A DNA stretch of 64,000 nucleotides from Anaerolineales bacterium (GTDB taxonomy: Bacteria > Chloroflexota > Anaerolineae > Anaerolineales > E44-bin32): positions 211,342 to 275,341 of the forward strand of contig DAOULU010000012.1 of NCBI GenBank assembly GCA_034417075.1, given 5' to 3'. Under the pieces are notes generated by a model that was given only the letters and a program-made list of their open reading frames with translations, searched no databases and was not told the DNA's origin. The translations under genes were made by a program, and so were the position numbers. Below, one piece after another: positions 1 to 41,106 of the stretch (positions within the stretch are counted from its first letter, which is position 1; each line of letters begins with the position of its first letter).

Positions 1-521
1 GTAAGGTGACGATGAAGTATCCCTCCTGCTACTTGATGGGACCACGGGCGCACGGCGAGATTCTATCGATGGCCTTCGCCGCCGACCATCAGCATCAGGA
101 TACTGGCGGCAAGGTGATCCATGTTGCGCCAAACACGACCAGCAAGATTACATCAAAGTCGATAAGCAAAGGCGGCGGCCGGGCTTCTTATCGCGGCTTG
201 CTGAAGGTGCACGATGGCGCTAAGAATTCGAAATCGAACGTGGTCTGTGATGCACTGCTGCTCGATGAGAATTCCCAATCGGATACCTATCCGTACATCG
301 AGATCGATGAAGAATTGGTAAACATCGGTCATGAAGCTTCGGTGAGCAAGGTGGGCGATGATCAACTCTTTTATTTGATGAGCCGTGGGTTGAGCGAAGA
401 GGAGGCGATCACCATGGTCGTCTCCGGTTTCATCGAACCGTTGGTCAAAGAACTGCCCATGGAATACGCCGTGGAGATGAATCGATTGATCCAACTCCAG
501 ATGGAAGGTTCGATCGGCTAA
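1..521 (+). CDS. sufB: Fe-S cluster assembly protein SufB, C-terminal part (gene begins upstream of window)
   Basis: Frame is open to the window edge. The tail ...[64 protein letters not shown] is the conserved SufB/SufD C-terminal signature. sufD-sufS-sufU follow. Confidence 0.9.
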
Positions 522-569
522 TCCCTTCATGCAGTGCACGAAGGATCAACGACAAGGATAACTTGCGAT

Positions 570-7469: not shown

Positions 7470-9782
7470 GTGAACGCCGAAATGGAACGTGCACAAAGAA
7501 GAGAAGATGTCACGTTGAGCCGTGACCTCAACTTATTCACCGTAACCATGATCGGTGTCGGTGGCATGGTGGGTGCGGGCATCTTCGTCCTCACGGGTAT
7601 CGCCGCCGGTATCGCAGGTCCGGCTTTGATACTTGTCTTCCTGCTCAACGGTCTCGTGACTTCGTTTACGGCGATGTCCTACGCGGAGCTTGGTTCTGCA
7701 TTTCCAGGTGCGGGAGGCGGCTACCAATGGATCAAAGAAGCACTCGGGGGGACGTTAGGGTTCTTGTCCGGTTGGATGAGTTGGTTTGCCCAGACCATAG
7801 CCGGCAGCTTGTATGCGCTGGCGTTCGGTCGTTTTGCAGCCGAATTGGTATTCCTCTTCAATATACCGGTTGCGGGATTGTCTGTAGAGCAATTGAGCCG
7901 GATTTTCATGACGCTCATTATCTTCTTGTTCATCGCTACCAATTACAGGGGTGCATCTGAAACAGCCGCAGTCGGTAATTTTCTCACGGTGACTAAAATC
8001 GCAATTCTAGGTTGTTTGGTAATCTTTGGTATCGCTGCCATGCTGCGGTCGGATTCCTGGTACACGCGCTTCACTGCTGATTTCTTCCCGAACGGCTTTT
8101 TCAGTGTATTCGTGGCAATGGGGTTGACCTTTATTGCCTTTGAGGGCTACGAGATTATCGCCCAATCGGGAGAGGAAGTCATCGATCCGAATCGCAACAT
8201 CCCGCGGGCAGTCTTTTATTCGATCGGTATCGCGGTCTTGATTTATGTATTGGTGGGTTTCGTAGCGATCGGTGCCGTCCAACCTCCGAACGATCAGGCG
8301 GGATATGCTTACCTTGGTCAGCAAGGTGAAATCGCTGTGATCCAAGTCGCTCAGCAAGTATTCCCATTAGGCATTGGCGGTCTGATCCTGCTGTTGAGCG
8401 GACTGGCGTCCACGACTTCAGCCTTAAACGCTACGACCTATGCTTCGTCTCGAGTCTCTTTTGCCATGGGCCGTGATCACAACCTACCGTCGTTTTTCGC
8501 CAAGATCCACCCCCAACGCCACACGCCGTATTTGGCCGTGTTGGCTACCGGCGGATTGATGGTCATCATGGCTTGGACCCTTCCCATCGAGGATGTCGCC
8601 TCTGCGGCGAGTATCATGTTCTTGCTGCTATTTTTAATGGTCAATCTCGCCGTGTTGTTCCTGCGGTTGCAGCGGCCCGAACTCGAGCGTGGTTTTATGG
8701 TGCCCTGGTTTCCGGTGCTACCGGTGCTCGCGATTCTCTCCAACGCAATTCTGGCGCTTTATGTGTTCCAATTCAGTGCCATTGCCTGGTATGCGACCCT
8801 CATCTGGGTGGTGATCGGTTTGCTTGCCTACGCATTTTATTTCTCGCGCGTCGAGGAGATGGAAAAACCCAAAGAAATCTTGCTCGAAGAAGTCTTGGTC
8901 AGCCGGGATTATTCCATCTTGGTTCCAGTGTCCACGAAGGAGGAAGCGCGGGTTCTGGGAGCCATTGGAGCGATCTTGGCTCAACAGCGACAGGGGGAAG
9001 TCCTGGCGCTTAACGTGGCCAAAGTGCCGCCGCAGCTAACACTGGGAGACGGGCGCTACCTGCTCCGCGAGGGCCGCGTACACCTGGAAGAAGTCATCGA
9101 GCAAGCCCGAAGCTACGATGTTCCCGTACACACCATTATCCGCCTCGGACGGAACGTGTCAGCGGCAATTCGTCAGACGGCGATGGAAAATGCTTCCGAC
9201 CTTATCGTTCTGGGGTGGCCTGGCTACACCCACACATCTGGCAGAGTATTCGGATCGGTGATCGATCCCATCGTGGATAATCCGCCGACGGACGTGGTCG
9301 TCGTGCGCTACCGTCAATGGCGTCCCTTGAAGAAAATTCTCGTGCCGGTTTCCGGGGGTCCGAACAGCCGGCGAGCGGTCAAATTGGCGGTGGACATGGC
9401 GTCGGCGGAGAAACCGGAGCCTGCGTTGGTCACTGCGCTGCACATCGTTCCCTTCCATGCCAAAGAGCAAGGTCACGTGCGCGGCTCCCGGGCGTTGCAA
9501 GACAGTGTCGACGGGATCGAGTTTGGGCACCTCGAAACGCGTGTCGTAAAAGGTTCCGATCTCGGGACGACGATCCTGGAGCAAGCGGAGGGCTACGACT
9601 TGATCGTCCTCGCCGCGAGCGAGGAGCCGGTGTTCAAGAATCTATTGGTCGGAACGATGACGGAACGCGTTGCCCGGCAAGCCGAAGTGACGGTGATGAT
9701 GGTAAAGCGGCGCAGCACTCCACTGCACAGCTTCGTGCGTCAGGCACTGCTGGAACCTACCGTTCCGAAACCATTGGATTGA
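7470..9782 (+). CDS. APC-family amino acid/polyamine permease fused to two C-terminal universal stress protein (UspA) domains
   Basis: About 12 hydrophobic segments in the first ~450 aa. Two Usp-like modules follow (YSILVPVSTKEEARVLG... and KKILVPVSGGPNSRRAVKLAVDMA...VTALHIVP). aggag RBS before GTG 7470. Confidence 0.85.
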   Translation: MNAEMERAQRREDVTLSRDLNLFTVTMIGVGGMVGAGIFVLTGIAAGIAGPALILVFLLNGLVTSFTAMSYAELGSAFPGAGGGYQWIKEALGGTLGFLSGWMSWFAQTIAGSLYALAFGRFAAELVFLFNIPVAGLSVEQLSRIFMTLIIFLFIATNYRGASETAAVGNFLTVTKIAILGCLVIFGIAAMLRSDSWYTRFTADFFPNGFFSVFVAMGLTFIAFEGYEIIAQSGEEVIDPNRNIPRAVFYSIGIAVLIYVLVGFVAIGAVQPPNDQAGYAYLGQQGEIAVIQVAQQVFPLGIGGLILLLSGLASTTSALNATTYASSRVSFAMGRDHNLPSFFAKIHPQRHTPYLAVLATGGLMVIMAWTLPIEDVASAASIMFLLLFLMVNLAVLFLRLQRPELERGFMVPWFPVLPVLAILSNAILALYVFQFSAIAWYATLIWVVIGLLAYAFYFSRVEEMEKPKEILLEEVLVSRDYSILVPVSTKEEARVLGAIGAILAQQRQGEVLALNVAKVPPQLTLGDGRYLLREGRVHLEEVIEQARSYDVPVHTIIRLGRNVSAAIRQTAMENASDLIVLGWPGYTHTSGRVFGSVIDPIVDNPPTDVVVVRYRQWRPLKKILVPVSGGPNSRRAVKLAVDMASAEKPEPALVTALHIVPFHAKEQGHVRGSRALQDSVDGIEFGHLETRVVKGSDLGTTILEQAEGYDLIVLAASEEPVFKNLLVGTMTERVARQAEVTVMMVKRRSTPLHSFVRQALLEPTVPKPLD

Positions 9783-9804
9783 ATCCAGAAGAAATTACGC
9801 TCAT

Positions 9805-9834
9805 AAAAAACAAGCTCCCCATATTGGGGAGCTT
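9805..9834 (-). terminator. intrinsic terminator between convergent genes (best on the minus strand)
   Basis: Perfect 9-bp stem aagctcccc / ggggagctt with 5-nt loop. On the minus strand it is followed by gtttttt. Confidence 0.65.
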
Positions 9835-9855
9835 ATAGTTATGGCTCTCAATGGT

Positions 9856-11025
9856 TTATGGTATAGGCACGGATGGCGGTTTGTCAGGACGGTACGCGTC
9901 GCCACCGCAGTTCCAATTCCAATCGGCGATGACGATGTTCTCGACGCTGCCGTTCGGTGGTACGGTTACGGTTTTCAGGGCCTTTCCACAGGATGGGTTG
10001 CTGCCGGTGTATCCGCCGGCAACGTAAGGAACGCCACCGACGCCCTTGGCGTAAGCCACGACGTGATAGTTCCCCGGAGGAACCGTCATGCTGTAATACG
10101 GGTGAGTCGGGGTGGTGTGGATCCACCACCACGTGTTATCGTCCAGATTGAAGAACATGACCACGACGGGAGACTCGCCACCCGTGTAGGAGTCCTTGAG
10201 GTACGGAGGTGCGGACGCCATGTCGACCATCCCCGATATCGTACCCGGCGTGCCGCTCGATGTGCTGGGAAGAGATGTGGTTGCCGTGGCGACGACGACG
10301 GGAACGGGTTGCTCAGCATTGGGATCTCGTTGGACATAAGGACTGATCCAAATTGGATTGTACAGATTACGATCACCTGAAGTACGCACAACGAGTACAA
10401 ATTCCACCGTCTGTCCGGTAAGCGAGCTGAGATCGACTTCGACTTCAGTATGTGCGCCGCTGGTGGCATCATGGTCGGAGATCGGTCGTGGTCCGAGGTC
10501 AGGCGGAAGGTCGTGGAAGGTGCCACTGGCGTCGAAGTAACTGAGACCGAAATCAACATCGCAAGCAATGGCGGAAGGTTTGCACGCCAGAATTGCGTGA
10601 AAGGTATCACCTTCCCAGACCTGCATGGCCGGATAATGGCCGAAAATACCAGCGAATCTGTCGTACGCCGGGATAGTAATCAGCGAGGGCGACTCGACCA
10701 GGATGTCACCTGAAACGATCGTGTTATCCAGACGTTCAACGTAACCAGCGCCCGTGTCGTTTGGGTCCCCTGGGCAGGGCAAGTATTCGCCGTTGTTCGA
10801 CCATTCGGCAGTGCACATGGCAGTGACGAAATCGAGCACGACGGTCGATGGGTCTGGCATGGTGACATCGAGCACTTGCGGCGTCGCGGTGCTCGTAGGC
10901 TCAGGGGTGTTCGTTTCAGTGGGAGGCGGAGGGATCGTGATCGTTGGTGATGGTGAGACATTCACCGGCGCATTGCAGGCGGCCAGTGTGAAAATGGTGG
11001 CGAGGATGAGCAGGAAGTGTTTCAA
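9856..11025 (-). CDS. secreted lipoprotein, hypothetical, with Thr/Pro-rich linkers and a carboxypeptidase-regulatory-like C-terminal domain
   Basis: Lipobox signal MKHFLLILATIFTLAAC. aaggag RBS 6 nt before the TTG start. C-terminal MTVPPGNYHVVAYAKG... resembles CarboxypepD_reg-type beta-sandwiches. Confidence 0.7.
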   Translation of the reverse strand: MKHFLLILATIFTLAACNAPVNVSPSPTITIPPPPTETNTPEPTSTATPQVLDVTMPDPSTVVLDFVTAMCTAEWSNNGEYLPCPGDPNDTGAGYVERLDNTIVSGDILVESPSLITIPAYDRFAGIFGHYPAMQVWEGDTFHAILACKPSAIACDVDFGLSYFDASGTFHDLPPDLGPRPISDHDATSGAHTEVEVDLSSLTGQTVEFVLVVRTSGDRNLYNPIWISPYVQRDPNAEQPVPVVVATATTSLPSTSSGTPGTISGMVDMASAPPYLKDSYTGGESPVVVMFFNLDDNTWWWIHTTPTHPYYSMTVPPGNYHVVAYAKGVGGVPYVAGGYTGSNPSCGKALKTVTVPPNGSVENIVIADWNWNCGGDAYRPDKPPSVPIP

Positions 11026-11194
11026 GGCGAACTCCTTTATGCTGCAGTGTTATCGGTCCATGGTGCGGAAATAGACCGGCGCCTACTCTATCGCGCAAGA
11101 TGGCTTGTGTCAATCCGGGCGGAAGGTACTGGTTGCGTATAGCCATAAACTTAACGATTGTTTTTTTACTTGGCATCTTCGAACAGGAGCAATT

Positions 11195-12463
11195 ATGTGG
11201 GATAATGTCGAGTTGGTTGCGACGAGAGACCGGCTGAATGTAAGGATTCTTAAGAAGATGAAGATAGTTGTTCCAGCCATTGGATCGCGAGGTGATGTTC
11301 AACCATACATCAACCTTTGTCAGGCGCTGACCGCGGCGAAGCACAATGTGGTCATTGCCACCAATCCAACGTTGTGTGATCTGGTTCTCGAGCATGGTGT
11401 GGCGTGTGTCCCTGTCGGTTCTCCAATCGACATGGGCGTCGAAGGTGCGCGGCTCCTCGAACGATCATTTAACAATATATACATTGGCATGATCCGGGTA
11501 ATGCAACTTGCTATGCGCTTGGTCGAAGAAGCATTTGACGATGTTCTAGGAGCTTGTCGCAGTGCGGACCTCGTCATCGTTTCGGATACCGGCAGTGGTA
11601 TGGCTGAGGCAGATAAGTTGGGGATACCATGGATCAGTGTAACGCTGCAGCCTGCGAGAATCCCTGCCGAACGCCAGGTCCCATTAAATGTCTTTCAACG
11701 TATACTCTGGGGATTGATCGGAAGAATAATGGTCCTGCCGATCAATCGTTTCCGGAAAAGGGTGGGAGCTCCCCTCGTTTCTGATGTCGCCAGTATGCAA
11801 TCGCAACGAATGCTTCTATTGCCTGTTAACCAGCATGTCGCACCGCCCGATCCAAATTGGCCGGATTACGTTCATCAAACAAATTTCTGGTTTGCCCAAC
11901 CACAGAAAGATTGGAGGCCACCGAGGGATTTGATTGAATTCCTTCATGCGGGAGAGACACCGATAGCGGTGAGCCTTGGTGTGATGAGTATGCACGGACA
12001 CAAAGCTCAAGTAAGTGCGAAAGTGATACTTGAAGCGATTAAGCAGGTGGGAGTACGGGCGATAATTCAGGGATGGAATGAAATTTATCAAGAGGAAATA
12101 TCACACACAGATATCTATTTCACAGGTTCCATGCCACATGATTGGTTATTCGATCAGGTTCAGGCAGTCATACACCATGGAGGCTTTGGTACAACGGCGG
12201 CTGTTCTACGAGCTGGTGTCCCCGGAATTGTAATTCCGCACGTTATTGACCAATTCTATTGGGGTCAGCGAGTAGCTCAACTTGGAACGGGTCCGAAACC
12301 CATTCGACGCAGTAAAATCAATGTTGCCAATATTAGGGAGGCGTTATCACAGGCAATGTTTAATGTTGCTATACGAGAAAATGCACGCCGGATGGGAGAA
12401 TATATAAGATCCGATCCCGATGGGGTGAAAACGGCTGTATCAATCATAGAGAGCGAAATTTGA
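11195..12463 (+). CDS. GT1-family glycosyltransferase (UDP-glycosyltransferase / MGT type)
   Basis: N-terminal GSRGDVQPY motif and C-terminal UDPGT signature HHGGFGTTAAVLRAGVPGIVIPHVIDQFYWG. ATG 11195 has an aggag RBS; alternative starts at 11105 and 11258. Confidence 0.85.
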   Translation: MWDNVELVATRDRLNVRILKKMKIVVPAIGSRGDVQPYINLCQALTAAKHNVVIATNPTLCDLVLEHGVACVPVGSPIDMGVEGARLLERSFNNIYIGMIRVMQLAMRLVEEAFDDVLGACRSADLVIVSDTGSGMAEADKLGIPWISVTLQPARIPAERQVPLNVFQRILWGLIGRIMVLPINRFRKRVGAPLVSDVASMQSQRMLLLPVNQHVAPPDPNWPDYVHQTNFWFAQPQKDWRPPRDLIEFLHAGETPIAVSLGVMSMHGHKAQVSAKVILEAIKQVGVRAIIQGWNEIYQEEISHTDIYFTGSMPHDWLFDQVQAVIHHGGFGTTAAVLRAGVPGIVIPHVIDQFYWGQRVAQLGTGPKPIRRSKINVANIREALSQAMFNVAIRENARRMGEYIRSDPDGVKTAVSIIESEI

Positions 12464-32337: not shown

Positions 32338-32787
32338 CTATTCCTCATCCAGTGCTTGTCGAACTGCGACGGCTAAGATATCAACGTCGTATGGTTTGTG
32401 AATGATCGTTTTAACGCCGGCTTCCTTTAATTGATCCAAATCCTCAGCCAATATGTGGCCCGTCACTGCAAGCGCTTTCACCTGCGACCCAGATTGGCGT
32501 ATCTTTTGAAGCATAGCTGCGCCGCCAACTTCAGGCATCACGACGTCAGTAAATATCAGATCGATATCCTCTGACTGGTTAAAAACTTTAAGTGCTTCTA
32601 GACCGTTCGATGCACAAAGAACTTGATATCCTAAATCCTCTAAAATCTGCATTCCGACTTCACGCATCAAGTCATTGTCCTCCACAAACAAGATGGTTTC
32701 CCCTTTTCCTTGTGGGACGCCTCTAATTGTTTCTTCTTCTTGAAGATTGAAATCAGGCTTTTCCATAGAAAGTGGAGGTTCACTCAT
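32338..32787 (-). CDS. stand-alone receiver (CheY-like) domain protein, homologous to the C-terminus of the adjacent hybrid kinases
   Basis: [21 protein letters not shown] and HKPYDVDILAVAVRQALDEE closely match the REC of 24184..27972. ATG 32787 overlaps the stop of the upstream transposase-like ORF by 8 nt; the ORF track starts at TTG 32829. Confidence 0.75.
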   Translation of the reverse strand: MSEPPLSMEKPDFNLQEEETIRGVPQGKGETILFVEDNDLMREVGMQILEDLGYQVLCASNGLEALKVFNQSEDIDLIFTDVVMPEVGGAAMLQKIRQSGSQVKALAVTGHILAEDLDQLKEAGVKTIIHKPYDVDILAVAVRQALDEE

Positions 32788-34018
32788 TAAAAAATCCTTT
32801 TCCCTTGTAAACCCACCAGGCGTGAGCAATCATTGATAAAGTAAAATGACGATGCCAGCTGTTCCAGCGACGGACTCCATAGTCGTCCATCTTAAAAAAT
32901 GTGCAAGCTTCTGCTACCATTTGTTTTAAACTTCCAAGTGCATTGGTAATCGTTGCGAGATTTGTCAATGACGAGTCTTCTGTGGCGTTCGATATAAAGT
33001 ACGCAGTTTCACAGCGTTGACTTACCGATCGGCGCGCTAGCAGCCACACTTCATGGGAGGTGTCCCCATCAGGGTGTTCAACGACGCGATCTGATGCCCA
33101 ATCGAAGACACAAAGTTCATCGTCATTGGTGCCGCCAATCAAGCGTTTCCATTTTTGCTCGGGCCAAGAAGAGACGATTTTGAAAATTGTGGGTTCGACA
33201 GATCCATTTTCCCCTTTGTCCGATATTTGCGAATCGTCATCGGGATCGGTCTGCCGGTAAGTAGAATCGGTTTTTCGGCCGGGAAGAATGTAATTCATAC
33301 CTGTCGCCTGGATGACGATGCGCAAATTCGGATCGTCGCAAAAAGGTTCCGCACCAACAATCCACTGCATCGGTGTTCCAATGGCATGAACCGACTGAAG
33401 CATATCCAGGGTGAGATCGGATTTGCTTCGATATTCAATGTTCTCGGGAATTTTCGCTTCTCGTCTTCGCTTGTGATCTTCAGCCCATTCCACGGGGAGA
33501 TAGAGACGACGGTCGAGGAATGTTGAACCTTTGGCGGAGGTGTAGCCTAAGAATAAGCAGACCTGGCAATTCTGTTCTCTGTTGATTTTGTGGTTGAATT
33601 GTGGCTGCACACCGACGGTCTTTGCCCCTTTTTTCGGAAAATATGTAACTCCGATGAGACAAATGCCATCCTCGTCCCCTAATTCTGATACGATGAATTC
33701 CTGAAGACGAGAATGAACGGCTTCATCGTCCCATTGCGCACCAAAAAACAATCTTTGGGCGGCTTTGGATGATTTATTATTGTTGGAAGTTAATGGATTT
33801 CTTCCGCGAGACTTGCGCTCCGCATTTTGGAGTAGAGACTGTACATAATGCAGTGCTTGTTGTCGCGTTTCGGTCCGCGCGAAATATTCATCGAATTGAT
33901 CGTGGAAAAATTCTTCGAACTCGGACCATTCACACGATCGGTCGACCGTTGAAAGAGAATTGATACCAACTTCTGAAATACTTCCGCCTCTTCCGTTCAT
34001 CACCCAAATACTTTTCAC
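32780..34018 (-). CDS. IS701-family (DDE) transposase-like protein, possibly catalytically degenerate
   Basis: Co-linear with the IS701 consensus as I recall it: FARTETRQQALHYVQSLL..ERK, FPKKGAKTVGVQ, NCQVCLFLGY, LYLPVEWAEDHKRRREAKIP, WNSWHRHFTLSMIAHAW. No terminal inverted repeats found. Only 27-45 nt separate it from the upstream gene. Confidence 0.7.
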   Translation of the reverse strand: MKSIWVMNGRGGSISEVGINSLSTVDRSCEWSEFEEFFHDQFDEYFARTETRQQALHYVQSLLQNAERKSRGRNPLTSNNNKSSKAAQRLFFGAQWDDEAVHSRLQEFIVSELGDEDGICLIGVTYFPKKGAKTVGVQPQFNHKINREQNCQVCLFLGYTSAKGSTFLDRRLYLPVEWAEDHKRRREAKIPENIEYRSKSDLTLDMLQSVHAIGTPMQWIVGAEPFCDDPNLRIVIQATGMNYILPGRKTDSTYRQTDPDDDSQISDKGENGSVEPTIFKIVSSWPEQKWKRLIGGTNDDELCVFDWASDRVVEHPDGDTSHEVWLLARRSVSQRCETAYFISNATEDSSLTNLATITNALGSLKQMVAEACTFFKMDDYGVRRWNSWHRHFTLSMIAHAWWVYKGKGFFNE

Positions 34019-34045: not shown

Positions 34046-34438
34046 TCAAGATAGGAATTCAACGATTTGTTTAATGGCCTGATTCGTCATGCGTCGGTAG
34101 CTGTGGTCTGGTGGTGCAATAACCGCAAGAATCATTTCCTCGCCGCCGGCTTTTAAATATCGACAAACCAAACGCATCCGATTGGAATCAAGAATGGAAA
34201 ATTCATCAATTTCTGCGAGCGGAAATTGATCACGTACCTCTTTGCTCATTCTTTTAAGCATCGCAATCATGGCTGCGGCTTTATCAGTATCGAAATTCGC
34301 AGGTACGGTTGCGATCGGCAACCCTTCACCGCTGGCAAGAACGGCGGTCTCAAATTGACCTTGTTCGTGCAAGGTGAGCAGCAATTCGTCAAGCGTTACT
34401 GGTTGGTACGTGGCCGAATCAACTTGTTGATAATTCAT
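34046..34438 (-). CDS. Roadblock/LC7 (MglB-like) domain protein
   Basis: 130 aa, single-domain size, with FETAVLASGEGLPIATV...MRLVCRYLKAGGEEMILAVIAP, the typical Roadblock pattern. Confidence 0.8.
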   Translation of the reverse strand: MNYQQVDSATYQPVTLDELLLTLHEQGQFETAVLASGEGLPIATVPANFDTDKAAAMIAMLKRMSKEVRDQFPLAEIDEFSILDSNRMRLVCRYLKAGGEEMILAVIAPPDHSYRRMTNQAIKQIVEFLS

Positions 34439-34471
34439 TGTAACCTTCCTAAAGCCACAAATTATCGAATG

Positions 34472-34963
34472 CTAATTTTCGCCAAACAGACTCTCAATTT
34501 CCGTGGTCAATGCTTGCCCAAATTCATCATCGACAATGCGTCCCTGTTCCTTTTGTACGCGTTCGAACTCCGCAGCAAGCGGGAGCAAGTTCTTCACGGC
34601 TTGGCCTGTGAAAAGGCGTACAAGACCGATCTGGACTTTTGTGCTGAATAAGACGACGAGCAAAAAACTACCGGCAACGTTCGAAAGATAGATATTCTGA
34701 TCGTCCCCTTCGTGGAACATGAGTTTGAAGGGATTTTCCTCACCGATCTGGCGGGCAATCTCTGCCGTGGCAGCCATGTTGCTGGCGGTTAAAGCAGAAA
34801 GGATCACTGGATCAAAGGTCTTCGTAAACCCTTGTTGGCAGATCAGCTGTCCGCTGATGTCTGCCAATAAGACGCAGCAGGCTTGGGTTTTCTCCAGCAA
34901 TTGCGATAAGATCTTGATGATCTTCGTCATCAGAGCTGGGGGTATGACTACTTTATCTGACAT
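34472..34963 (-). CDS. Roadblock/LC7 (MglB-like) domain protein
   Basis: ATG 34963 is preceded by a gggagg RBS. ACCVLLADISGQLICQQG...FLLVVLFSTKVQIGLV fits the Roadblock pattern. The longer ORF to 35086 is unlikely. Confidence 0.8.
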   Translation of the reverse strand: MSDKVVIPPALMTKIIKILSQLLEKTQACCVLLADISGQLICQQGFTKTFDPVILSALTASNMAATAEIARQIGEENPFKLMFHEGDDQNIYLSNVAGSFLLVVLFSTKVQIGLVRLFTGQAVKNLLPLAAEFERVQKEQGRIVDDEFGQALTTEIESLFGEN

Positions 34964-35144
34964 TGGGTACCTCCCGAGATTGGTTGGCGTTGACTTTCGA
35001 GTTCGAAGCTCTGCAGGTTTCGTTGGAAGTCCCGCCGAATTTCCGATGGAGCGACAGAATTTGGATGTGTCCAAAGGTCGTCCCATCGTCTAGTTTGTGA
35101 CGGGTATAGTTTAAATTCCCAGGAAACATGCTCGTAACACATGG

Positions 35145-35927
35145 TTATGTTCTTCTCCGCAATCGTTCGATTGCAGCTTTCAGGCTGACTCTCATTCGCT
35201 CAATCGATCGAGCAAGATCCTCCATCTCGTCGCCAGTGTCGGCAACAATGGGGCTGTCTAAATCGCCTCGACTGATGCTCTCGGCTGCCGAGCTGAGGTA
35301 TAAAGCTGCACTCGTCAAGCCACGACTGATCGTCAGGGCGCTCAAAATGCCGATAATGATGCCAATGGCAACGACGATAATTGCGATTCTCATGATGTTG
35401 GTGATCTGACTCCCAATAACGTTGAGAAGTTGGTTCTGCTCGACTTCAACCACAGAGAGTAATTCATCCATCGCAGGTCTTACAATTTGAATGAAGAAAA
35501 TATCGGCTTCATCGATGTCAAGTAATGTGCTGGTAATGTCATTCGGATTAGATTCATAGGCCGATTGTGCATTCTCAAGATATTGGTGGTAGATCGCGAC
35601 CGCTTGTTCGATGTCCGATAAATAATCTGAATATTGAGCGCTTGAATTTTCGACTATGTTTGTCCACTGTTGGTTGTATTCTTCTCGAAGATCAGCGAGC
35701 GCTGTTTCTTCTCCGGTTGCAATATGATGACTCAATGATGTCCGTTCCATCAGCAAGAGTCTCATACCTCTTTCGACAAATTCAATGGTTTGCAGCGCTG
35801 TGATTGAATCTCGCGTTGCGTTGGTTAGCGTGTTTAATCCGAGGAAGACCCCAACCCCGATCAAGACTAGCAAGACCAGAGGGATTCCGAGACCAATTCC
35901 CAATTTTCTCCCGATGGTCAATCTCAT
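35145..35927 (-). CDS. membrane protein: two TM helices, helical extracytoplasmic domain and HAMP domain, with no output domain
   Basis: TM1 [25 protein letters not shown]2 [27 protein letters not shown]-like [50 protein letters not shown]. The ORF ends ~15 aa later. Confidence 0.8.
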
Positions 35928-36012
35928 CTTTATTTAGATCTCCTTAATCCTTGTCGTAGAACGGACTCTTACCCTTATACCCGATATGGCAGACCGCTGC
36001 GTTTCAACTGTG

Positions 36013-36801
36013 TTAAATACTTCGCAACAAATCTAGCATGATCTGTTGAAAACGCATGCGTTGATCTGAGTCCTCAATTTCCGTGCTCACCTGTTCCACC
36101 AGGTCAGCAACTTTGTTTCGCGGAAAGGATTCTCTGGTTTCATTCAAGTCGGCGATTTTTTCATCAATTATCACCGGCCCCATTGGGCCGATCACTTCAA
36201 TGAATTCGTCATTAAGTCGATCGAAAAACTCGTTGTCGATGGCAGTTATGGGCAACGACTTCGATTCTTCGACGATCTCTAGCAGTCCCGTCTTTACAAG
36301 CCCGGCAAGGACGTTTGCGGCTTTAAAGTCTTCCCATCCCAAGGATTCGGCGATGTCGTCGATTGTGCGTACTCCGTTTACCTGCGCCAAGACCTTCCAT
36401 TCGTCCGGTTCCAAGTTGATCGCCCCCGTCGTTCCTTGGGCAAGGTTGAAAACCGCCTCCATCGATGGAATGACGTCCTTAATTTCGGACCATCCCTTGA
36501 TTCGTTTTTCCCCTTCACTGAGGAGCACCTCTGTTGACGTCGAAATGGACTCCTCTGGTGGTTCAATACCGCTCACGAAATTGAAGTTCCCATGCAGCCA
36601 TGATAGTAGGAAATAGAAAGCTTCTTCTCCCATTTGTGTCCCGGTGATGACATGAACGATGTTGCCATTCCGTAAGAAAATCTCACCGGTATTGCTCCCA
36701 TCCGATAAATCAAGTTTTCCCGTTTGACGCCCTGATTTTAATAATTGAATGATATTCGGGAGTGACAATTGGTTTAGATCACCCCGTAGAGCTTCTGCCA
36801 T
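36013..36801 (-). CDS. PATAN (DUF4388) domain protein
   Basis: N-terminus LRGDLNQLSLPNIIQLLKSGRQTGKLDLSDGSNTGEIFLRNGNIVHVITGTQMGEEAFYFLLSWLHGNFNF is the DUF4388/PATAN signature. ATG 36801 overlaps the upstream stop (TGATG). Confidence 0.8.
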   Translation of the reverse strand: MAEALRGDLNQLSLPNIIQLLKSGRQTGKLDLSDGSNTGEIFLRNGNIVHVITGTQMGEEAFYFLLSWLHGNFNFVSGIEPPEESISTSTEVLLSEGEKRIKGWSEIKDVIPSMEAVFNLAQGTTGAINLEPDEWKVLAQVNGVRTIDDIAESLGWEDFKAANVLAGLVKTGLLEIVEESKSLPITAIDNEFFDRLNDEFIEVIGPMGPVIIDEKIADLNETRESFPRNKVADLVEQVSTEIEDSDQRMRFQQIMLDLLRSI

Positions 36802-37238
36802 CACACGACTCCCTCATTAATGGTTATGTACAAACGCCAGGATATTTCATCGACATCGTCTTCCTGCACGATCCGGATGACCTGTTCTTTTGGTGCAATA
36901 TTGCCTAGTTGTGTTTCGAATTCCGGTCCGGATAAGTTTACATTCAATGTCAGTCGAAGAAGGGCGATGTCCACATTTGATTTGCAGATTACGACGAGCA
37001 AAGCCTGGTTGAGGTCGCGAATCAACACCCGGATTCCTTCATACGTCAGATCAAGTTCTTGAATCCCGTTCTGTATCCTGGCAGCGATTGCTTGCGTCAC
37101 TTGACGGCTGATTCCACGCAAAACCGCGATATTCAGGTTCCCGGGAACAGCGTTCACGATCACGTTGCCGTGATTGTCACAGATGAACGATCCGAGTACA
37201 CCGTCCAGTGCGTTGATTTCAGCGAGTACTTGGTCCAT
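36801..37238 (-). CDS. Roadblock/LC7 (MglB-like) domain protein
   Basis: 145 aa with LDGVLGSFICDNHGNVIVNAV...ALLVVICKSNVDIALLRL, the Roadblock pattern. Begins 9 nt after the upstream gene. Confidence 0.8.
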   Translation of the reverse strand: MDQVLAEINALDGVLGSFICDNHGNVIVNAVPGNLNIAVLRGISRQVTQAIAARIQNGIQELDLTYEGIRVLIRDLNQALLVVICKSNVDIALLRLTLNVNLSGPEFETQLGNIAPKEQVIRIVQEDDVDEISWRLYITINEGVV

Positions 37239-37247
37239 GTTGATCTC

Positions 37248-38258
37248 TTAGTCGGCCGTGAAACCAAGGATGAATGGACCTAAGCCCAGGCGCTTGATTG
37301 TGTCGTCGTATTTATCCTTTACCGCCTTCATTTCGGTCTGGATTCTATGTTCCAGATCCGCGGCTGCCGGTTGGGAGGCCAGCTGCTCGATTGTCGTGCT
37401 CAGGCAGTCGCTGAGACCTTTACTCAAATTCTTGGCATCGCCGCTGTATTGGATTATGCCGTCCTTGTATTGGAACAAACCGGCGAAGGGATCCAGAAAT
37501 GGATATTCGTTGGCCTTCTCGATCATGACGTATTTGAATGTCTCGAGGAACTGGCCTGCGCCGATTGTAGAGTCCGACATTTTCTCGATCGTACCAATCG
37601 TCTCACCCCACACGGCAAGCAAGCGTGGGAGATCGAAACCAGCTTCGATCTCTTCGCTCTCGGCAAACGAAGCTTCAATGGCCGCGTTGTAAACGTTGAA
37701 GTCCGCTCCCAAAGCTGAAGCATTCTCGACGATGTGAGGCAGAATCGCATCTCCGGATATCGCCTCATCCTGCATCGAGAGGATGCTCTCGACGACTTCA
37801 CCGTTTTCGAGGAAGACAATCGCGACGCCATCACCGCCTGTCATCCTAACCTCGATGTAGCCGGTGTGCCCCTCATTCTTCAGTTTCGAGATGAGTTTTT
37901 CGAGGCTGGTGAAGTCTGTGTTGAGATCCTTGTAGCGTACCTCGCTTCTCACGGTACTGGCGAGCATGGTTACCTTCTTTGGTGAGAGGCCATACACGCT
38001 GATGGAACCGTCTTTTTGGTTGACTTTTGTCGTAATGCTGCCGACGGCATCGTGGCTGGTCTTTCGTTTCCCGCTCACCTCTTCGATGGCATTGATGATG
38101 TTCCCATTGTCCATGAAAAGTGCGGCTTCGTAATCCCAAAAACTGATGTGAACGTATCCGGTGAAGCTGTTGGACTTGAGATCCAGCAATAATTTACCGA
38201 AACTTGTAAAAGAGGTATTCAGATTCTCGTAGATTGGTTTTCCCTTTGGTAATAACAT
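37248..38258 (-). CDS. hypothetical protein with two divergent PATAN/DUF4388-like repeats and a helical C-terminal region
   Basis: Repeats FGKLLLDLKSNSFTGYVHISFWDYEAALFMDNGNIINAIEE and LEKLISKLKNEGHTGYIEVRMTGGDGVAIVFLENGEVVESI. ATG 38258 has an aggag RBS. Domain call is tentative. Confidence 0.6.
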   Translation of the reverse strand: MLLPKGKPIYENLNTSFTSFGKLLLDLKSNSFTGYVHISFWDYEAALFMDNGNIINAIEEVSGKRKTSHDAVGSITTKVNQKDGSISVYGLSPKKVTMLASTVRSEVRYKDLNTDFTSLEKLISKLKNEGHTGYIEVRMTGGDGVAIVFLENGEVVESILSMQDEAISGDAILPHIVENASALGADFNVYNAAIEASFAESEEIEAGFDLPRLLAVWGETIGTIEKMSDSTIGAGQFLETFKYVMIEKANEYPFLDPFAGLFQYKDGIIQYSGDAKNLSKGLSDCLSTTIEQLASQPAAADLEHRIQTEMKAVKDKYDDTIKRLGLGPFILGFTAD

Positions 38259-38351
38259 TGTGTTTCTCCTATGAGAGCTAATCTTTGTCGAAACGGTTGC
38301 CTTCATTCGACGATTGCTCGAATAGTAGCATCCGGATTTTTCCTCAACGCA

Positions 38352-39062
38352 TCAATCTTTATCCTTTCGATGCCTTCTCTTCGTGACTTGTATTGAATTG
38401 GCTGTGGCACTTACTGGGATTTTTGGATCCATGGACAAAACCGTAAGCTGTTTTTCGGACGGAAAGACGATCATTCTCCAACCCTCGCCGGACATGGTGA
38501 TTTGCTGAAGCGCTCCGGCGTTTAAAAGGATACCTAATTCTTCTGCGCGTCTCCCGGTAAAAGCAGTGAGAGCCGCCGTCGCTTTGGGATCCTTCGTTGA
38601 CTCGAAACCTATGATGTCACCGTATTTCGATGCAACGAGTGCACTTTCGATGCCATTGATGCGTGTGAAATCTTTTACCATCCGTACAGCAGCTTCATGT
38701 TCGGCTTTCTTTTTTTCCCGATCGGCATCTTCATCGTCACTGCTTTTCATCAGGGTCTGCTCGTCGATGCGTCGCAGCCCTTCCAACAGCAAATGGGACC
38801 AGTTGGTATCTACGCTGCGTTTCGGCGCGCGTATGTCTTTCGTTAATTCGAACGTCCCATCTTCCCAGGTTAGAAGTTCGAAGATCACGTCTTCTCCTTC
38901 TTGCGAACCCAGCGTCATGTGGACGATGTCCCCCTCATCGAAAAACAAGGTTCCCTCTTGATCCCGATGTTTCACAAGGAGACGTGCTTGATTCATCTCA
39001 TTGCAATTAATGCTGATCAGACTGGATAGACTGATGTCAATTAAATTCCCCTGAACTGCCAT
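38352..39062 (-). CDS. PATAN (DUF4388) domain fused to a Roadblock/LC7-like domain
   Basis: N-terminus QGNLIDISLSSLISINCNEMNQARLLVKHRDQEGTLFFDEGDIVHMTLGSQEGEDVIFELLTWEDGTFEL (PATAN). C-terminus INGIESALVASKYGDIIGFES...WRMIVFPSEKQLTVLSM (Roadblock-like). ATG 39062 avoids overlap with the GTPase gene. Confidence 0.75.
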   Translation of the reverse strand: MAVQGNLIDISLSSLISINCNEMNQARLLVKHRDQEGTLFFDEGDIVHMTLGSQEGEDVIFELLTWEDGTFELTKDIRAPKRSVDTNWSHLLLEGLRRIDEQTLMKSSDDEDADREKKKAEHEAAVRMVKDFTRINGIESALVASKYGDIIGFESTKDPKATAALTAFTGRRAEELGILLNAGALQQITMSGEGWRMIVFPSEKQLTVLSMDPKIPVSATANSIQVTKRRHRKDKD

Positions 39063-39088
39063 AAGCGATTGCCTTTGTTTCCTATGAT

Positions 39089-39661
39089 TTAAAGTTGTCG
39101 GACCACGAGATTTATGATGGCTTTCAAAGTATCGAATACGCCATGTCCCTTGATCGCGGACGAGCCCATACAAGGGACGCCATTGACATTCATCTGCGTC
39201 TTTAAATCATCGGGTTTGATCACGTCGGGAAGGTCCTGCTTGTTGAATTGAATAACGCAGGGAAATGAATCGATCGGCGTCCCTAGCTGCATCAAGTAGT
39301 TTTCGAGCGCTTTGAGATCATTGACGTTATCGGTTAGACGATCACGCTGCGAATCGGCAACGAATACGACTCCATCGGATCCTTGAAGGACGAGTTTTCG
39401 GCTTGCTTCGTAATACACCTGCCCGGGTACGGTATACAGACTGAATTTTGGTTTCAGACCATTGATACTCCCGAGTTCTAATTGCATGAAATCGAAGAAT
39501 ATCGTTCGATCTTCACGCGTTTTCAAAGAAACCAATTCCCCGCGCGATTTGGGGTTGATGTGTCCGTGGATGAATTGTAGGTTTGTCGTTTTTCCACTGC
39601 GAGCAGGGCCATAATATACAATCTTGATATGTAGCTCGCCCAGCTTCTGGTTTATGTACAT
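39089..39661 (-). CDS. mglA: MglA-family Ras-like small GTPase
   Basis: 190 aa, co-linear with Myxococcus/Thermus MglA as I recall them: KIVYYGPARSGKTTNLQ (P-loop), EDRTIFFDF (intrinsic Arg), LYTVPGQVYY (switch II with Thr in place of Asp), NKQD (G4). ggagga RBS. Confidence 0.92.
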   Translation of the reverse strand: MYINQKLGELHIKIVYYGPARSGKTTNLQFIHGHINPKSRGELVSLKTREDRTIFFDFMQLELGSINGLKPKFSLYTVPGQVYYEASRKLVLQGSDGVVFVADSQRDRLTDNVNDLKALENYLMQLGTPIDSFPCVIQFNKQDLPDVIKPDDLKTQMNVNGVPCMGSSAIKGHGVFDTLKAIINLVVRQL

Positions 39662-39757: not shown

Positions 39758-40759
39758 CTATTTCGCCTTTTTAGTTTCTTTCAACTCAGATGGAACAAGC
39801 CCGGCATTCATTGCGTCTTCAAAGTTGATTAATTCTCCTGTACCGATATCCAGCAGGATCTCGTCGTCTAGCAATTGATCGAGTTCGGCATTCATTGCTT
39901 CCGCCAGGTTGTCGGAATCGATCTCCGCATCCTTCTGATCGGCGATCAGTGGAGCCAGTTCGGCGGCCGTTTGTTTGGTGTAATGCCATACCGCACCGGG
40001 TTTGGTTTCCGAACCGAAGATTACCGCTAAAAGGAAGTCTCCATCCACATCGTGCGCATAGATGTTGTATTCCGGCCCTTCATGGAAACTGGATTTAAAA
40101 ACCGAATCGCTTTTCAGGATTCTGGCCAATTCGGATGAAGCTGCGAAATTCGCAGCTACAAGTGCACTGATGTTTGATGTATCCATTCCGCTCGTCACAC
40201 CCGCTGTTTCAACCATATATCCATTGGCACTCAACAGTAATACGCATGAGGCTCCGGAGTCGGCCTGTAATTTATTCAATTTTTCACGCAGCGGTTCGCC
40301 AAGATCTCGCATCTCGGGCTGTTCATCGCTATTCATCGAGCCGATTGCTTTTTCAACGATCTCTCGAATCTGCGTCATGCTGAAGGGTTTATCGATAAAG
40401 CCTTCGAGATTCAATTCCTCGACGGATGAACGCAACTCCTTATTTCCATACGCCGTAATAAGGACTACTTTCGTATCCGGGGAGATTTCACGAACGGCTT
40501 TTGCTAAATCCAAGCCGTTCATGGTCGGCATCATATAGTCGGTTATGATCAGTTCGTAGGAACCGCTTTTAACCTTTTCAAGGGCAGCCGCGCCGCTATT
40601 TGCCGTATCGACAGTATACTCATCGCAAAGTTTGCTCAAGTAATTTGTCAAGGCTTTCAAGATTTCATGCTCATCGTCTACGATGAGCAAATGCCTGGTA
40701 TCTGCATCTTGAGTCGTCAAGTCGATTCTCCCAATACGCTTACCTTCCTGGATTGCCAA
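39758..40759 (-). CDS. response-regulator receiver domain fused to a Roadblock/LC7-like domain
   Basis: REC motifs LLIVDDEHE, ELIITDYMMPTMNG, ITAYG, DKP. C-terminal half ASCVLLLSANGYMVETAG...DFLLAVIFGSETKPGAV is Roadblock-like. TTG start at 40759, or TTG 40720 with a gggaga RBS. Confidence 0.8.
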   Translation of the reverse strand: MAIQEGKRIGRIDLTTQDADTRHLLIVDDEHEILKALTNYLSKLCDEYTVDTANSGAAALEKVKSGSYELIITDYMMPTMNGLDLAKAVREISPDTKVVLITAYGNKELRSSVEELNLEGFIDKPFSMTQIREIVEKAIGSMNSDEQPEMRDLGEPLREKLNKLQADSGASCVLLLSANGYMVETAGVTSGMDTSNISALVAANFAASSELARILKSDSVFKSSFHEGPEYNIYAHDVDGDFLLAVIFGSETKPGAVWHYTKQTAAELAPLIADQKDAEIDSDNLAEAMNAELDQLLDDEILLDIGTGELINFEDAMNAGLVPSELKETKKAK

Positions 40760-41106
40760 TGAATCTAAGATAAGGGTACATCATAAGTGAGAAAGTAGAC
40801 CTTTCATTTGGCTTGCAAAGTCACCTCAATATCTGCCTAGGGGTATGAAAAGACACCTGATGGCATTCTGGGAAACGTGCTCGAATTCGCATTCCTATGG
40901 TTTGTGACGTGACGTGCGTGAACCACAATTATATTCCGCTTCATGATTTGTGCAAAATGGTCTGGATAACTCTGATTTATGCTCTTTCGATCTTGCCTGA
41001 TTCGGTCCTCTGGATTTTGCTGGTCGTCTATTGTGGTGTAGATTAAGCGGGTAGTTGGGTTCGCCGTTTTTCGAAAGATGCACAATTCGCTGGAGGAGGT
41101 GTTGTT

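Follow-up and report, generated by a model that had tools for sequence, protein, structure and literature searches.

A receiver joined to an MglB-type Roadblock domain beside mglA in an Anaerolineales genome: a candidate phosphorylation-controlled regulator of the MglA/MglB module

The closest described systems to the one considered here are those of Myxococcus, in which the GTPase-activating protein (GAP) MglB and the receiver proteins RomR and FrzX are separate polypeptides (PMC6785124, PMC10329633, PMC13408092). A 64,000-nucleotide stretch of an Anaerolineales genome (GenBank assembly GCA_034417075.1, contig DAOULU010000012.1, positions 211,342 to 275,341; hereafter the window, with positions counted from its first letter) encodes a protein in which a receiver domain and a predicted MglB-type Roadblock/LC7 domain are joined in one chain, from a gene directly upstream of mglA. 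An earlier note on this DNA had drawn attention to the fusion and had pointed out that the GAP MglB and the receiver protein RomR are separate in characterised systems, which was confirmed for Myxococcus. Here the fusion protein, its relatives and its gene neighbourhood were analysed computationally.

In Myxococcus xanthus an MglB dimer binds one MglA, such that one protomer, MglB1, contributes its N-terminal strand and C-terminal helix (Ct-helix) and serves the exchange function, while the other, MglB2, contacts switch I and serves the GAP function (PMC11016934). The α2 helices of the dimer, on its two-helix side, make the main hydrophobic contact with strand β2 of MglA, and no MglB residue reaches the MglA active site (PMC3199381, PMC6785124). 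The Ct-helix has been described as an allosteric exchange element (PMC6785124). RomR binds MglB weakly, sequesters it and dissociates MglA-MglB (PMC13408092), and a RomR/MglC/MglB complex forms (PMC10329633), and MglC binds at K14, R115 and K120 (the KRK patch) on MglB's four-helix side.

Compared with MglB (M. xanthus MXAN_1926 and its Thermus thermophilus counterpart), the fusion protein has the same predicted fold, a conserved α2 face and an acidic C-terminal motif that resembles the Ct-helix, and its gene immediately precedes mglA, an order known from the mglBA operon. It differs in carrying a receiver where MglB has a free N-terminal strand, in the replacement of the KRK patch, in an Asp in place of R98, in an additional C-terminal motif and in the presence of a solo protein closer to MglB in the same cluster. 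RomR and FrzX couple a receiver to MglB and MglA, as the fusion would, but do so in trans; RomR also consists of a receiver, a linker and an acidic C-terminal helix able to replace the MglB Ct-helix (PMC6785124), yet it lacks the Roadblock domain to which the receiver of the fusion is covalently joined. MglC is, like the fusion, an MglB paralog encoded alongside MglB that may act on the same module; unlike the fusion it is a single domain, and it neither binds MglA nor has GAP activity (PMC4719450), whereas the Roadblock domain of the fusion resembles MglB itself and has a conserved α2 helix. The actinobacterial conservons (CvnA kinase, CvnB Roadblock, CvnC and CvnD GTPase) combine a histidine kinase with a Roadblock protein and a GTPase of the MglA family, as is the case here, and so tie two-component signalling to a small GTPase, but contain no response regulator and a group-2 MglA (PMC4316618), in contrast to the Roadblock-fused receiver and group-1 GTPase of the window.

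A looser likeness is found in the Rag/Gtr proteins, which also place an α/β switch domain before a Roadblock domain, the switch being a GTPase there and a phospho-receiver in the fusion. Rag/Gtr proteins act as heterodimers paired through their Roadblock domains. In Foldseek searches the two-domain model aligned over ~290-320 columns to Gtr1/Gtr2 and RagA/RagC (E ~1e-9) at a template modelling (TM) score of 0.31-0.36 and a root-mean-square deviation (rmsd) of ~10 Å. As modelled the domain arrangement is not superposable, and the resemblance is treated as an analogy only.

Receiver-MglB fusions have been noted before. Wuichet & Sogaard-Andersen reported them in 2014 (PMC4316618), kept such fusions apart from 58 single-domain MglB hits and described Response_reg + Robl_LC7 fusions in Pfam, whose model misses some of them; the text of the supplements does not name the five receiver-MglB sequences. 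The architecture is neither rare nor previously unnoticed, being present in Pfam, in automated JGI names and in the 2014 survey. No functional study of a receiver-Roadblock fusion or of a Chloroflexota MglA was found in the literature, within an incomplete coverage of journals.

Domain make-up of the fusion protein

The gene and its parts are as follows; residue numbers refer to the 320-amino-acid (aa) protein unless marked otherwise.
39758..40720 (-): receiver-MglB-like fusion gene, 320 aa, start TTG 40720, stop codon 39758-39760
40322..40696 (-): receiver (REC) domain, residues 9-133, from Pfam, an alignment of 73 full-length homologs and an AlphaFold2 (AF2) model
39923..40309 (-): MglB-type Roadblock/LC7 domain, residues 138-266, from phmmer, Foldseek and the family alignment
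40115..40183 (-): Roadblock helix α2, residues 180-202, the counterpart of the two-helix face with which MglB binds MglA
39860..39919 (-): acidic helical tail segment DSDNLAEAMNAELDQLLDDE, from the tail alignment of the 73 homologs
39782..39832 (-): conserved C-terminal motif LINFEDAMNAGLVPSEL, found family-wide beyond a variable linker

The C-terminal half is predicted to be specifically MglB-like, beyond a generic Roadblock identity. The Roadblock pattern motifs CVLLLSANGYMVETAG and FLLAVIFGSETKPG are both present, and the Pfam model Robl_LC7 matched residues 161-248 of the 333-aa numbering at E 2.2e-7 (31 bits against a gathering cut-off of 23). When compared by phmmer with the sequences of the PDB, the domain matched M. 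xanthus MglB (6izw/6h5b/6hjm) at E 3.5e-14 and 30-32% identity and T. thermophilus MglB at ~2e-6; only MglB entries fell below E 0.1, and no Roadblock-family PDB entry other than MglB was matched at E ≤ 1. An AF2 model built from the 73-homolog alignment had a mean predicted local distance difference test score (pLDDT) of 82, with means of 87-97 for blocks of 10 residues across Roadblock residues 138-266. Foldseek placed M. xanthus MglB (6hjm) first among PDB structures at a target-normalised TM score of 0.88, an rmsd of 1.7-1.8 Å over ~120 residues and ~30% identity. The 25 best matches were all MglB chains, those of T. thermophilus following those of M. xanthus. The Roadblock assignment of the earlier note was therefore borne out by the model (TM 0.88) and by phmmer, far more strongly than by the Pfam match, and became more specific.

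Helix α2 is the most conserved Roadblock segment in the fusion family. L187, A189, F192 and A194 were invariant among the 73 homologs and V188, A190 and N191 nearly so, and L187, A189, N191, F192 and A194 align to L58, A60, N62, V63 and A65 of M. xanthus MglB. Residues D51, L58, A60, N62, A64, A65, L69 and A70 of the M. xanthus protein are common to this one. The hydrophobic α2 patch that binds MglA (A64/G68 in M. xanthus and A68/A72 in T. thermophilus; PMC3199381, PMC6785124 for α2) was taken here as a mark of MglB proteins. At the A64 position an Ala is found in this protein and Met, Ala or Leu across the family. With two domains and 320 aa the protein lies outside the single-domain, ~130-180 aa format of MglB.

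The receiver is canonical and is predicted to be phosphorylatable. Response_reg (PF00072) matched residues 25-135 of the 333-aa numbering at E 2.5e-26 (92.5 bits, the cut-off being 30.2), and the motifs VDDE, ITDYMMP, ITAYG and DKP are all found in this half. The canonical residues that the earlier note had recognised stood up to the family comparison, the acidic pair D15 and D16, the phospho-acceptor D61 (codon 40538-40540), T89, K111 and also P112 being invariant in 73 of 73 homologs. The aromatic switch position 108 is Phe in this protein and was Tyr in 60 and Phe in 13 of the homologs. A pseudo-receiver was considered and rejected because the catalytic residues are invariant and the switch position is always Tyr or Phe. 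In the AF2 model the receiver forms the (βα)5 fold of five strand-helix units, with pLDDT of ~86-97 and, per 10-residue block, means of 78-97 over most of residues 11-120, and a short linker of low confidence joins receiver α5 to Roadblock α1. By phmmer the receiver matched RR468, CheY and Spo0F in the PDB (E 1e-16 to 1e-11). RomR was not among the best 60 of its 287 PDB sequence matches, which were CheY-, Spo0F- and RR468-like.

Beyond the Roadblock domain, an acidic helix rich in Asp and Glu carries the consensus LDxLF in most homologs and resembles the Ct-helix of M. xanthus MglB (DDDIDNLF, with IDNLF at its core). It is followed by a linker of 0 to >80 residues and by the C-terminal motif, which in homologs of the 32 loci numbered L001-L032 follows the pattern [LM]x[FL][DE][DE]Ax3G[LIV][VIL]P. 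In a set of 52 loci, described below, 28 of 29 matches to this pattern lay at the C-termini of receiver-Roadblock proteins. The tail is poorly ordered in the AF2 model, with block means of ~60-75 for the C-terminal motif.

The start codon, which had been left ambiguous between TTG 40759 and TTG 40720, is assigned by conservation to TTG 40720, giving a product of 320 aa. The open reading frame (ORF) 39758..40759 (-) is present and would encode 333 aa from the upstream TTG. In four orthologous loci, L001-L004, whose fusion proteins are 80-92% identical to that of the window, an alignment of the upstream region showed TTG 40759 replaced by GCG, CGA, ATA and ATG, and indels that are not multiples of three lie between the two candidate codons. 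TTG 40720, together with a GGGAG ribosome-binding site a few bases upstream, is invariant in the window and L001-L004, and the closest homologs are 318-323 aa long. These four observations settle the start at TTG 40720.

Upstream of the gene the following element was noted.
40780..40807 (-): promoter-like site ATGAAA-16-TATGAT, a consensus match only, of putative function
A leader of ~75 nt, at about 40765..40840 (-), contains this site and is almost invariant in the window and L001-L004, and the adjacent coding DNA is less conserved. Since no Rfam match was found anywhere in the window, the leader belongs to no known RNA family; it may represent a promoter together with an operator, or else a leader element of a kind not yet known.

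Genomic partners and distribution

The genes most directly related to the fusion within the window are these.
39089..39661 (-): mglA, a group-1 MglA small GTPase, 96 bp downstream of the fusion gene and its probable target
34472..35086 (-): stand-alone MglB ortholog, 204 aa, identified by phmmer, whose end TTEIESLFGE resembles the Ct-helix
18656..19687 (-): second receiver-Roadblock paralog, 343 aa, beyond the kinases at the distal end of the cluster

By sequence the product of 39089..39661 is a genuine group-1 MglA, as was expected from the earlier note, which had placed the fusion immediately upstream of an MglA-like GTPase. It matched M. xanthus MglA over its full length at E 1.5e-56, and the GPARSGKT P-loop, EDRT (Arg53, the intrinsic Arg finger of switch I), IFFDF of the MglB-binding strand β2, TVPGQ (catalytic Gln82) and NKQD are all kept, with no gaps inside these motifs. 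K181 is also kept, and Asn is found at the position of K185. No terminator-like site was detected on the coding strand in the interval that separates mglA from the fusion gene.

The earlier note had suggested from the fusion that GAP/GEF-like activity, or GTPase binding, is switched by Asp phosphorylation; the fusion is not, though, the GAP of this system joined to a receiver, since the solo MglB is closer to M. xanthus MglB. The latter was matched over residues 6-159 at E 1.1e-18, as compared with 3.5e-14 for the fusion, and its Ct-helix DDDIDNLFSE has its counterpart in TTEIESLFGE of the solo protein. The fusion is consequently assigned as a paralog of the canonical MglB of the cluster and not as its only candidate GAP. 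A hidden Markov model (HMM) of the fused Roadblock domain scored the solo MglB at 95.7 bits and, apart from the distant second paralog, picked out no more than two proteins of MglB type in the cluster. That paralog shares 30% identity with the fusion protein along its whole length (E 7e-50), as well as the two tail elements, the acidic helix and the C-terminal LISFDEAQKNGIVP motif; of its domains Pfam recognises REC alone. The fusion gene and this paralog bracket the whole MglA, PATAN and kinase cluster.

The architecture is widespread. A search with the full-length fusion protein returned 1289 matches at E ≤ 1e-5. The best 120 of these all scored ≥ 258 bits; both Pfam domains were found in 101 of them in precomputed annotation, the remainder showing the receiver only, and those with an organism name were from Anaerolineae. 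When the Roadblock domain by itself was compared exhaustively by phmmer with 1.84 billion representatives at 50% identity, 1038 matches were obtained at E ≤ 1e-3, of which 175 had E ≤ 1e-10. Among the best 150 of the 1038 the domain began at residue 130 or later in 86; 81 of these 86 matched Response_reg and only 55 reached the Robl_LC7 model. At least 81 clusters at 50% identity thus carry the receiver-Roadblock architecture among these best 150 representatives. Organism-named members of ten distant clusters were all from Chloroflexota and annotated as response regulators. The earlier note had allowed that the architecture might prove to be both common and functionally characterised; the first part holds, as the 81 of 150 representatives, the 52 loci below and its mention in the 2014 survey indicate, while for the second no study was found in the journals covered.

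One genome per GTDB species was scanned, yielding 52 Chloroflexota loci from Anaerolineales, Caldilineaceae, Ardenticatenales, Promineifilaceae and others. In 31 of the 47 loci that could be assessed mglA lies downstream on the same strand.
mglA start within 300 bp of the fusion gene: 11 loci
mglA start within 3 kb: 19 loci
mglA start at 3.1 kb: 1 locus
mglA absent despite ≥ 3 kb of sequence: 16 loci
Too little sequence for assessment: 5 loci
Gaps of 520-730 bp in the 3-kb group usually hold a stand-alone MglB-like gene, as found by HMM search, and the commonest order is fusion, solo mglB, mglA, small Roadblock gene and PATAN protein gene. A histidine-kinase core was found at ≤ 5 kb in 25 of the 52 loci, upstream in 21 of these. 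Neighbour joining of 96 Roadblock domains placed the fused ones in one clade apart from the solo MglB-like proteins; the tree carries no support values, and this clade suggests, as an indication, a single fusion event followed by duplications.

Tandem receiver-Roadblock pairs were observed in loci labelled Caldilineaceae or Anaerolineales (L036, L038-L041, L044, L046 and L049), around positions 8400-11700 in most of them and at 2200-5300 in L041 and L044. These loci have no mglA in up to 10 kb of downstream sequence, with nothing assessable in L049. The pairs hint at heterodimers or at an MglA-independent role. The neighbours of the pair in L038 are unrelated, being a Cas4-like nuclease and an ILEI-domain protein. 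In the Anaerolineae locus L010 (4586..18623) two mglA genes, each followed by a small Roadblock gene, are interleaved with genes for a GAF-kinase, an OmpR-type regulator, a REC-kinase, two receiver-Roadblock proteins and two PATAN proteins, which shows that MglA modules have been duplicated and rewired within the phylum.

The remaining genes of the cluster in the window were identified with Pfam. Those of the module 34046..39173 stand in the same order in L001-L004, with 71-98% identity.
38352..39173 (-): PATAN/DUF4388 protein, start probably ATG 39065
37248..38306 (-): DUF2226/PATAN-like protein
36801..37238 (-): 145-aa protein of no detectable family
36013..36804 (-): PATAN protein
35145..35927 (-): HAMP-domain protein
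34046..34438 (-): divergent Roadblock protein, 130 aa
32780..34018 (-): DDE_5 transposase-like gene, between the small Roadblock gene and that of a 163-aa receiver
32338..32829 (-): single-domain receiver protein, 163 aa (Pfam E 3.9e-22), directly upstream of the kinases and kept in L001, L003 and L004
19847..32315 (-): three tandem paralogous hybrid histidine kinases, the candidate phosphodonors
PATAN genes sometimes adjoin group 1 and group 5 mglA genes (PMC4316618). The listed ORF 38352..39173 overlaps mglA by 85 nt; its start is placed at ATG 39065 because the Pfam domain begins at residue 41 and this ATG lies 24 nt past the mglA stop. No family was detectable for the C-terminal ~110 residues of this protein. 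A Roadblock identity is not assigned to 36801..37238 or 38352..38690; profile-profile comparison by hhalign found no similarity to the fusion family, the alignments being shallow with an effective number of sequences (Neff) of ~1.4. The DDE_5 gene is syntenic in four related genomes (L001 16695..17909, L003 16728..17948, L004 16725..17942 and the window), and its product is 70-74% identical across them, roughly as diverged as the flanking genes. A recent insertion sequence splitting the operon was rejected on these grounds, and the gene appears by its conservation to be vertically inherited and possibly domesticated.

The earlier note had counted three neighbouring kinases. They are not adjacent to the fusion gene but lie 7.4-21 kb downstream of it, on the same strand and at the far end of the conserved cluster. 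The kinases are 1262-1421 aa long and have the domain order Peripla_BP (LacI-type)-PAS-GAF-HisKA-HATPase-REC, and the first of them is found at the same position in L001, L003 and L004. No ORF with the HxxKG motif of Hpt proteins was found in or near the cluster, the sole match in the window being 156..545 on its opposite side.

Proposed action and alternatives

It is considered probable, at roughly 0.8, that the fusion regulates the MglA/MglB module in one way or another under the control of phosphorylation. By analogy, it is most likely a cis version of the control that RomR and FrzX exert on MglB in Myxococcus. The more specific proposal, that the fusion acts as a regulated MglB by binding MglA directly, is given even chances. 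A histidine kinase of the cluster would phosphorylate Asp61 of the receiver, with the three hybrid kinases as putative donors. Phosphorylation may then change the presentation of the Roadblock domain, either because it promotes dimerisation or shifts its register, or because it lifts an intramolecular block, and the altered dimerisation, or a changed accessibility of the two-helix face and of the N-terminal segment, would gate MglA binding and the GAP or exchange effect on MglA. Receiver α5 leads through the linker into Roadblock α1, the position whence MglB extends its strand to β0 of MglA. The Roadblock dimer could engage MglA-GTP directly through its conserved α2 face, with the acidic LDxLF tail helix acting as the MglB Ct-helix does. 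It would supply no catalytic residue and would stabilise the Arg and Gln of MglA itself for hydrolysis or exchange. The MglA cycle would gain a signal-dependent level of control, beside a constitutive solo MglB, with an output that is probably polarity or a surface machine acting through PATAN proteins. The direction of the phosphorylation effect, and whether it falls on GAP/GEF activity or on binding or localisation alone, is something we infer, as are phosphate transfer from these kinases, direct contact with MglA and the cellular output.

Several observations weigh against this proposal. A stand-alone MglB closer to that of M. xanthus is encoded in the cluster, and a second GAP is not obviously needed. 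The predicted TM score (pTM) of the AF2 model is 0.48 and the mutual placement of receiver and Roadblock domain is undefined in it. On the α2 face, the position of MglB G68 is Glu in 69 of 73 homologs; as the solo MglB of the cluster carries the same Glu, this looks by alignment like a phylum trait rather than a lost function. The four-helix side has W245 (71 of 73 homologs) in the place of MglB R115 and Q250 (66 of 73) in that of K120, both belonging to a signature of the family, VWxYTKQ; no alignment to the fusion protein was obtained for K14. N37 and R98 give modest support to the GAP activity of M. xanthus MglB (PMC11016934); the former is kept in this protein but variable across the family and the latter is Asp here and Asp or Glu in the family. 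At 16 of the 47 assessable loci mglA is missing from at least 3 kb of downstream sequence, many of these being the Caldilineaceae tandem pairs. All three kinases are hybrid and there is no HxxKG ORF near the cluster, leaving the route of phosphorylation unclear.

Some of these observations are accommodated by a reading in which the fusion is an adaptor and not a GAP. It would leave MglA itself untouched and bind the solo MglB, other Roadblock proteins or PATAN proteins, and phosphorylation would tune the availability or localisation of MglB indirectly. The cluster also encodes a canonical MglB, usually right beside the fusion gene. The near-invariant VWxYTKQ that replaces the KRK patch on the four-helix side suggests a different partner surface. 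The C-terminal motif is specific to the family, conserved and without a known partner, about a third of the assessable loci have no nearby mglA, and MglC and RomR provide a precedent (PMC4719450, PMC10329633, PMC13408092). The conserved face is nonetheless that of α2, the two-helix side with which MglB binds MglA; the sequence is specifically MglB-like, no other Roadblock entry of the PDB being reached at E ≤ 1; and the acidic motif resembling the Ct-helix is retained. We regard an adaptor as rather unlikely on balance.

Obligate pairing of the fusion with either the solo MglB or the second paralog, in an asymmetric dimer of which one protomer makes the GAP-side contacts, the other serves exchange through its N-terminal strand and Ct-helix, and phosphorylation selects the mode, is held to be unlikely. 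MglB1 and MglB2 act asymmetrically in M. xanthus (PMC11016934), the order fusion, solo mglB, mglA recurs, tandem receiver-Roadblock pairs are found in Caldilineaceae, the window itself holds two paralogs, and the whole chain bears the loose Foldseek resemblance to Rag/Gtr noted above. This resemblance is weak overall at TM 0.31-0.36 and an rmsd of ~10 Å, and in the clade of the window the solo mglB is not adjacent but 4.7 kb from the fusion gene. More doubtful still is the particular form in which such a heterodimer would hard-wire the MglB1/MglB2 split, with Asp61 phosphorylation flipping it between GAP and exchange-factor modes. If true, this would constitute a phosphorylation-driven analogue of the Rag-type Roadblock dimers and would wire two-component sensing directly to a Ras-like GTPase.

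A phosphate sink or an MglA-unrelated regulator, whose Roadblock would be a dimerisation or ligand-binding module for another pathway, is highly improbable. Loci without mglA do exist and Roadblock domains are found in a variety of settings; against this reading, diverged Anaerolineae keep the linkage to mglA, MglB and PATAN genes, and the similarity is specifically to MglB.

Relevance to the control of MglA

There is still debate over how the phosphorylated receiver proteins FrzX, FrzZ and RomR invert polarity in Myxococcus through MglB and MglA, and recent publications are at odds about direct binding of RomR to MglB. If the fusion is indeed a phosphorylation-controlled regulator of the MglA/MglB module, a natural covalent joining of receiver and MglB would provide a simpler model of this control, as it consists of a single polypeptide that is linked to a canonical MglA and MglB and has hundreds of homologs. 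The fusion also shows that elaborate MglA modules exist in the Anaerolineae, a group of mostly uncultured, filamentous bacteria.

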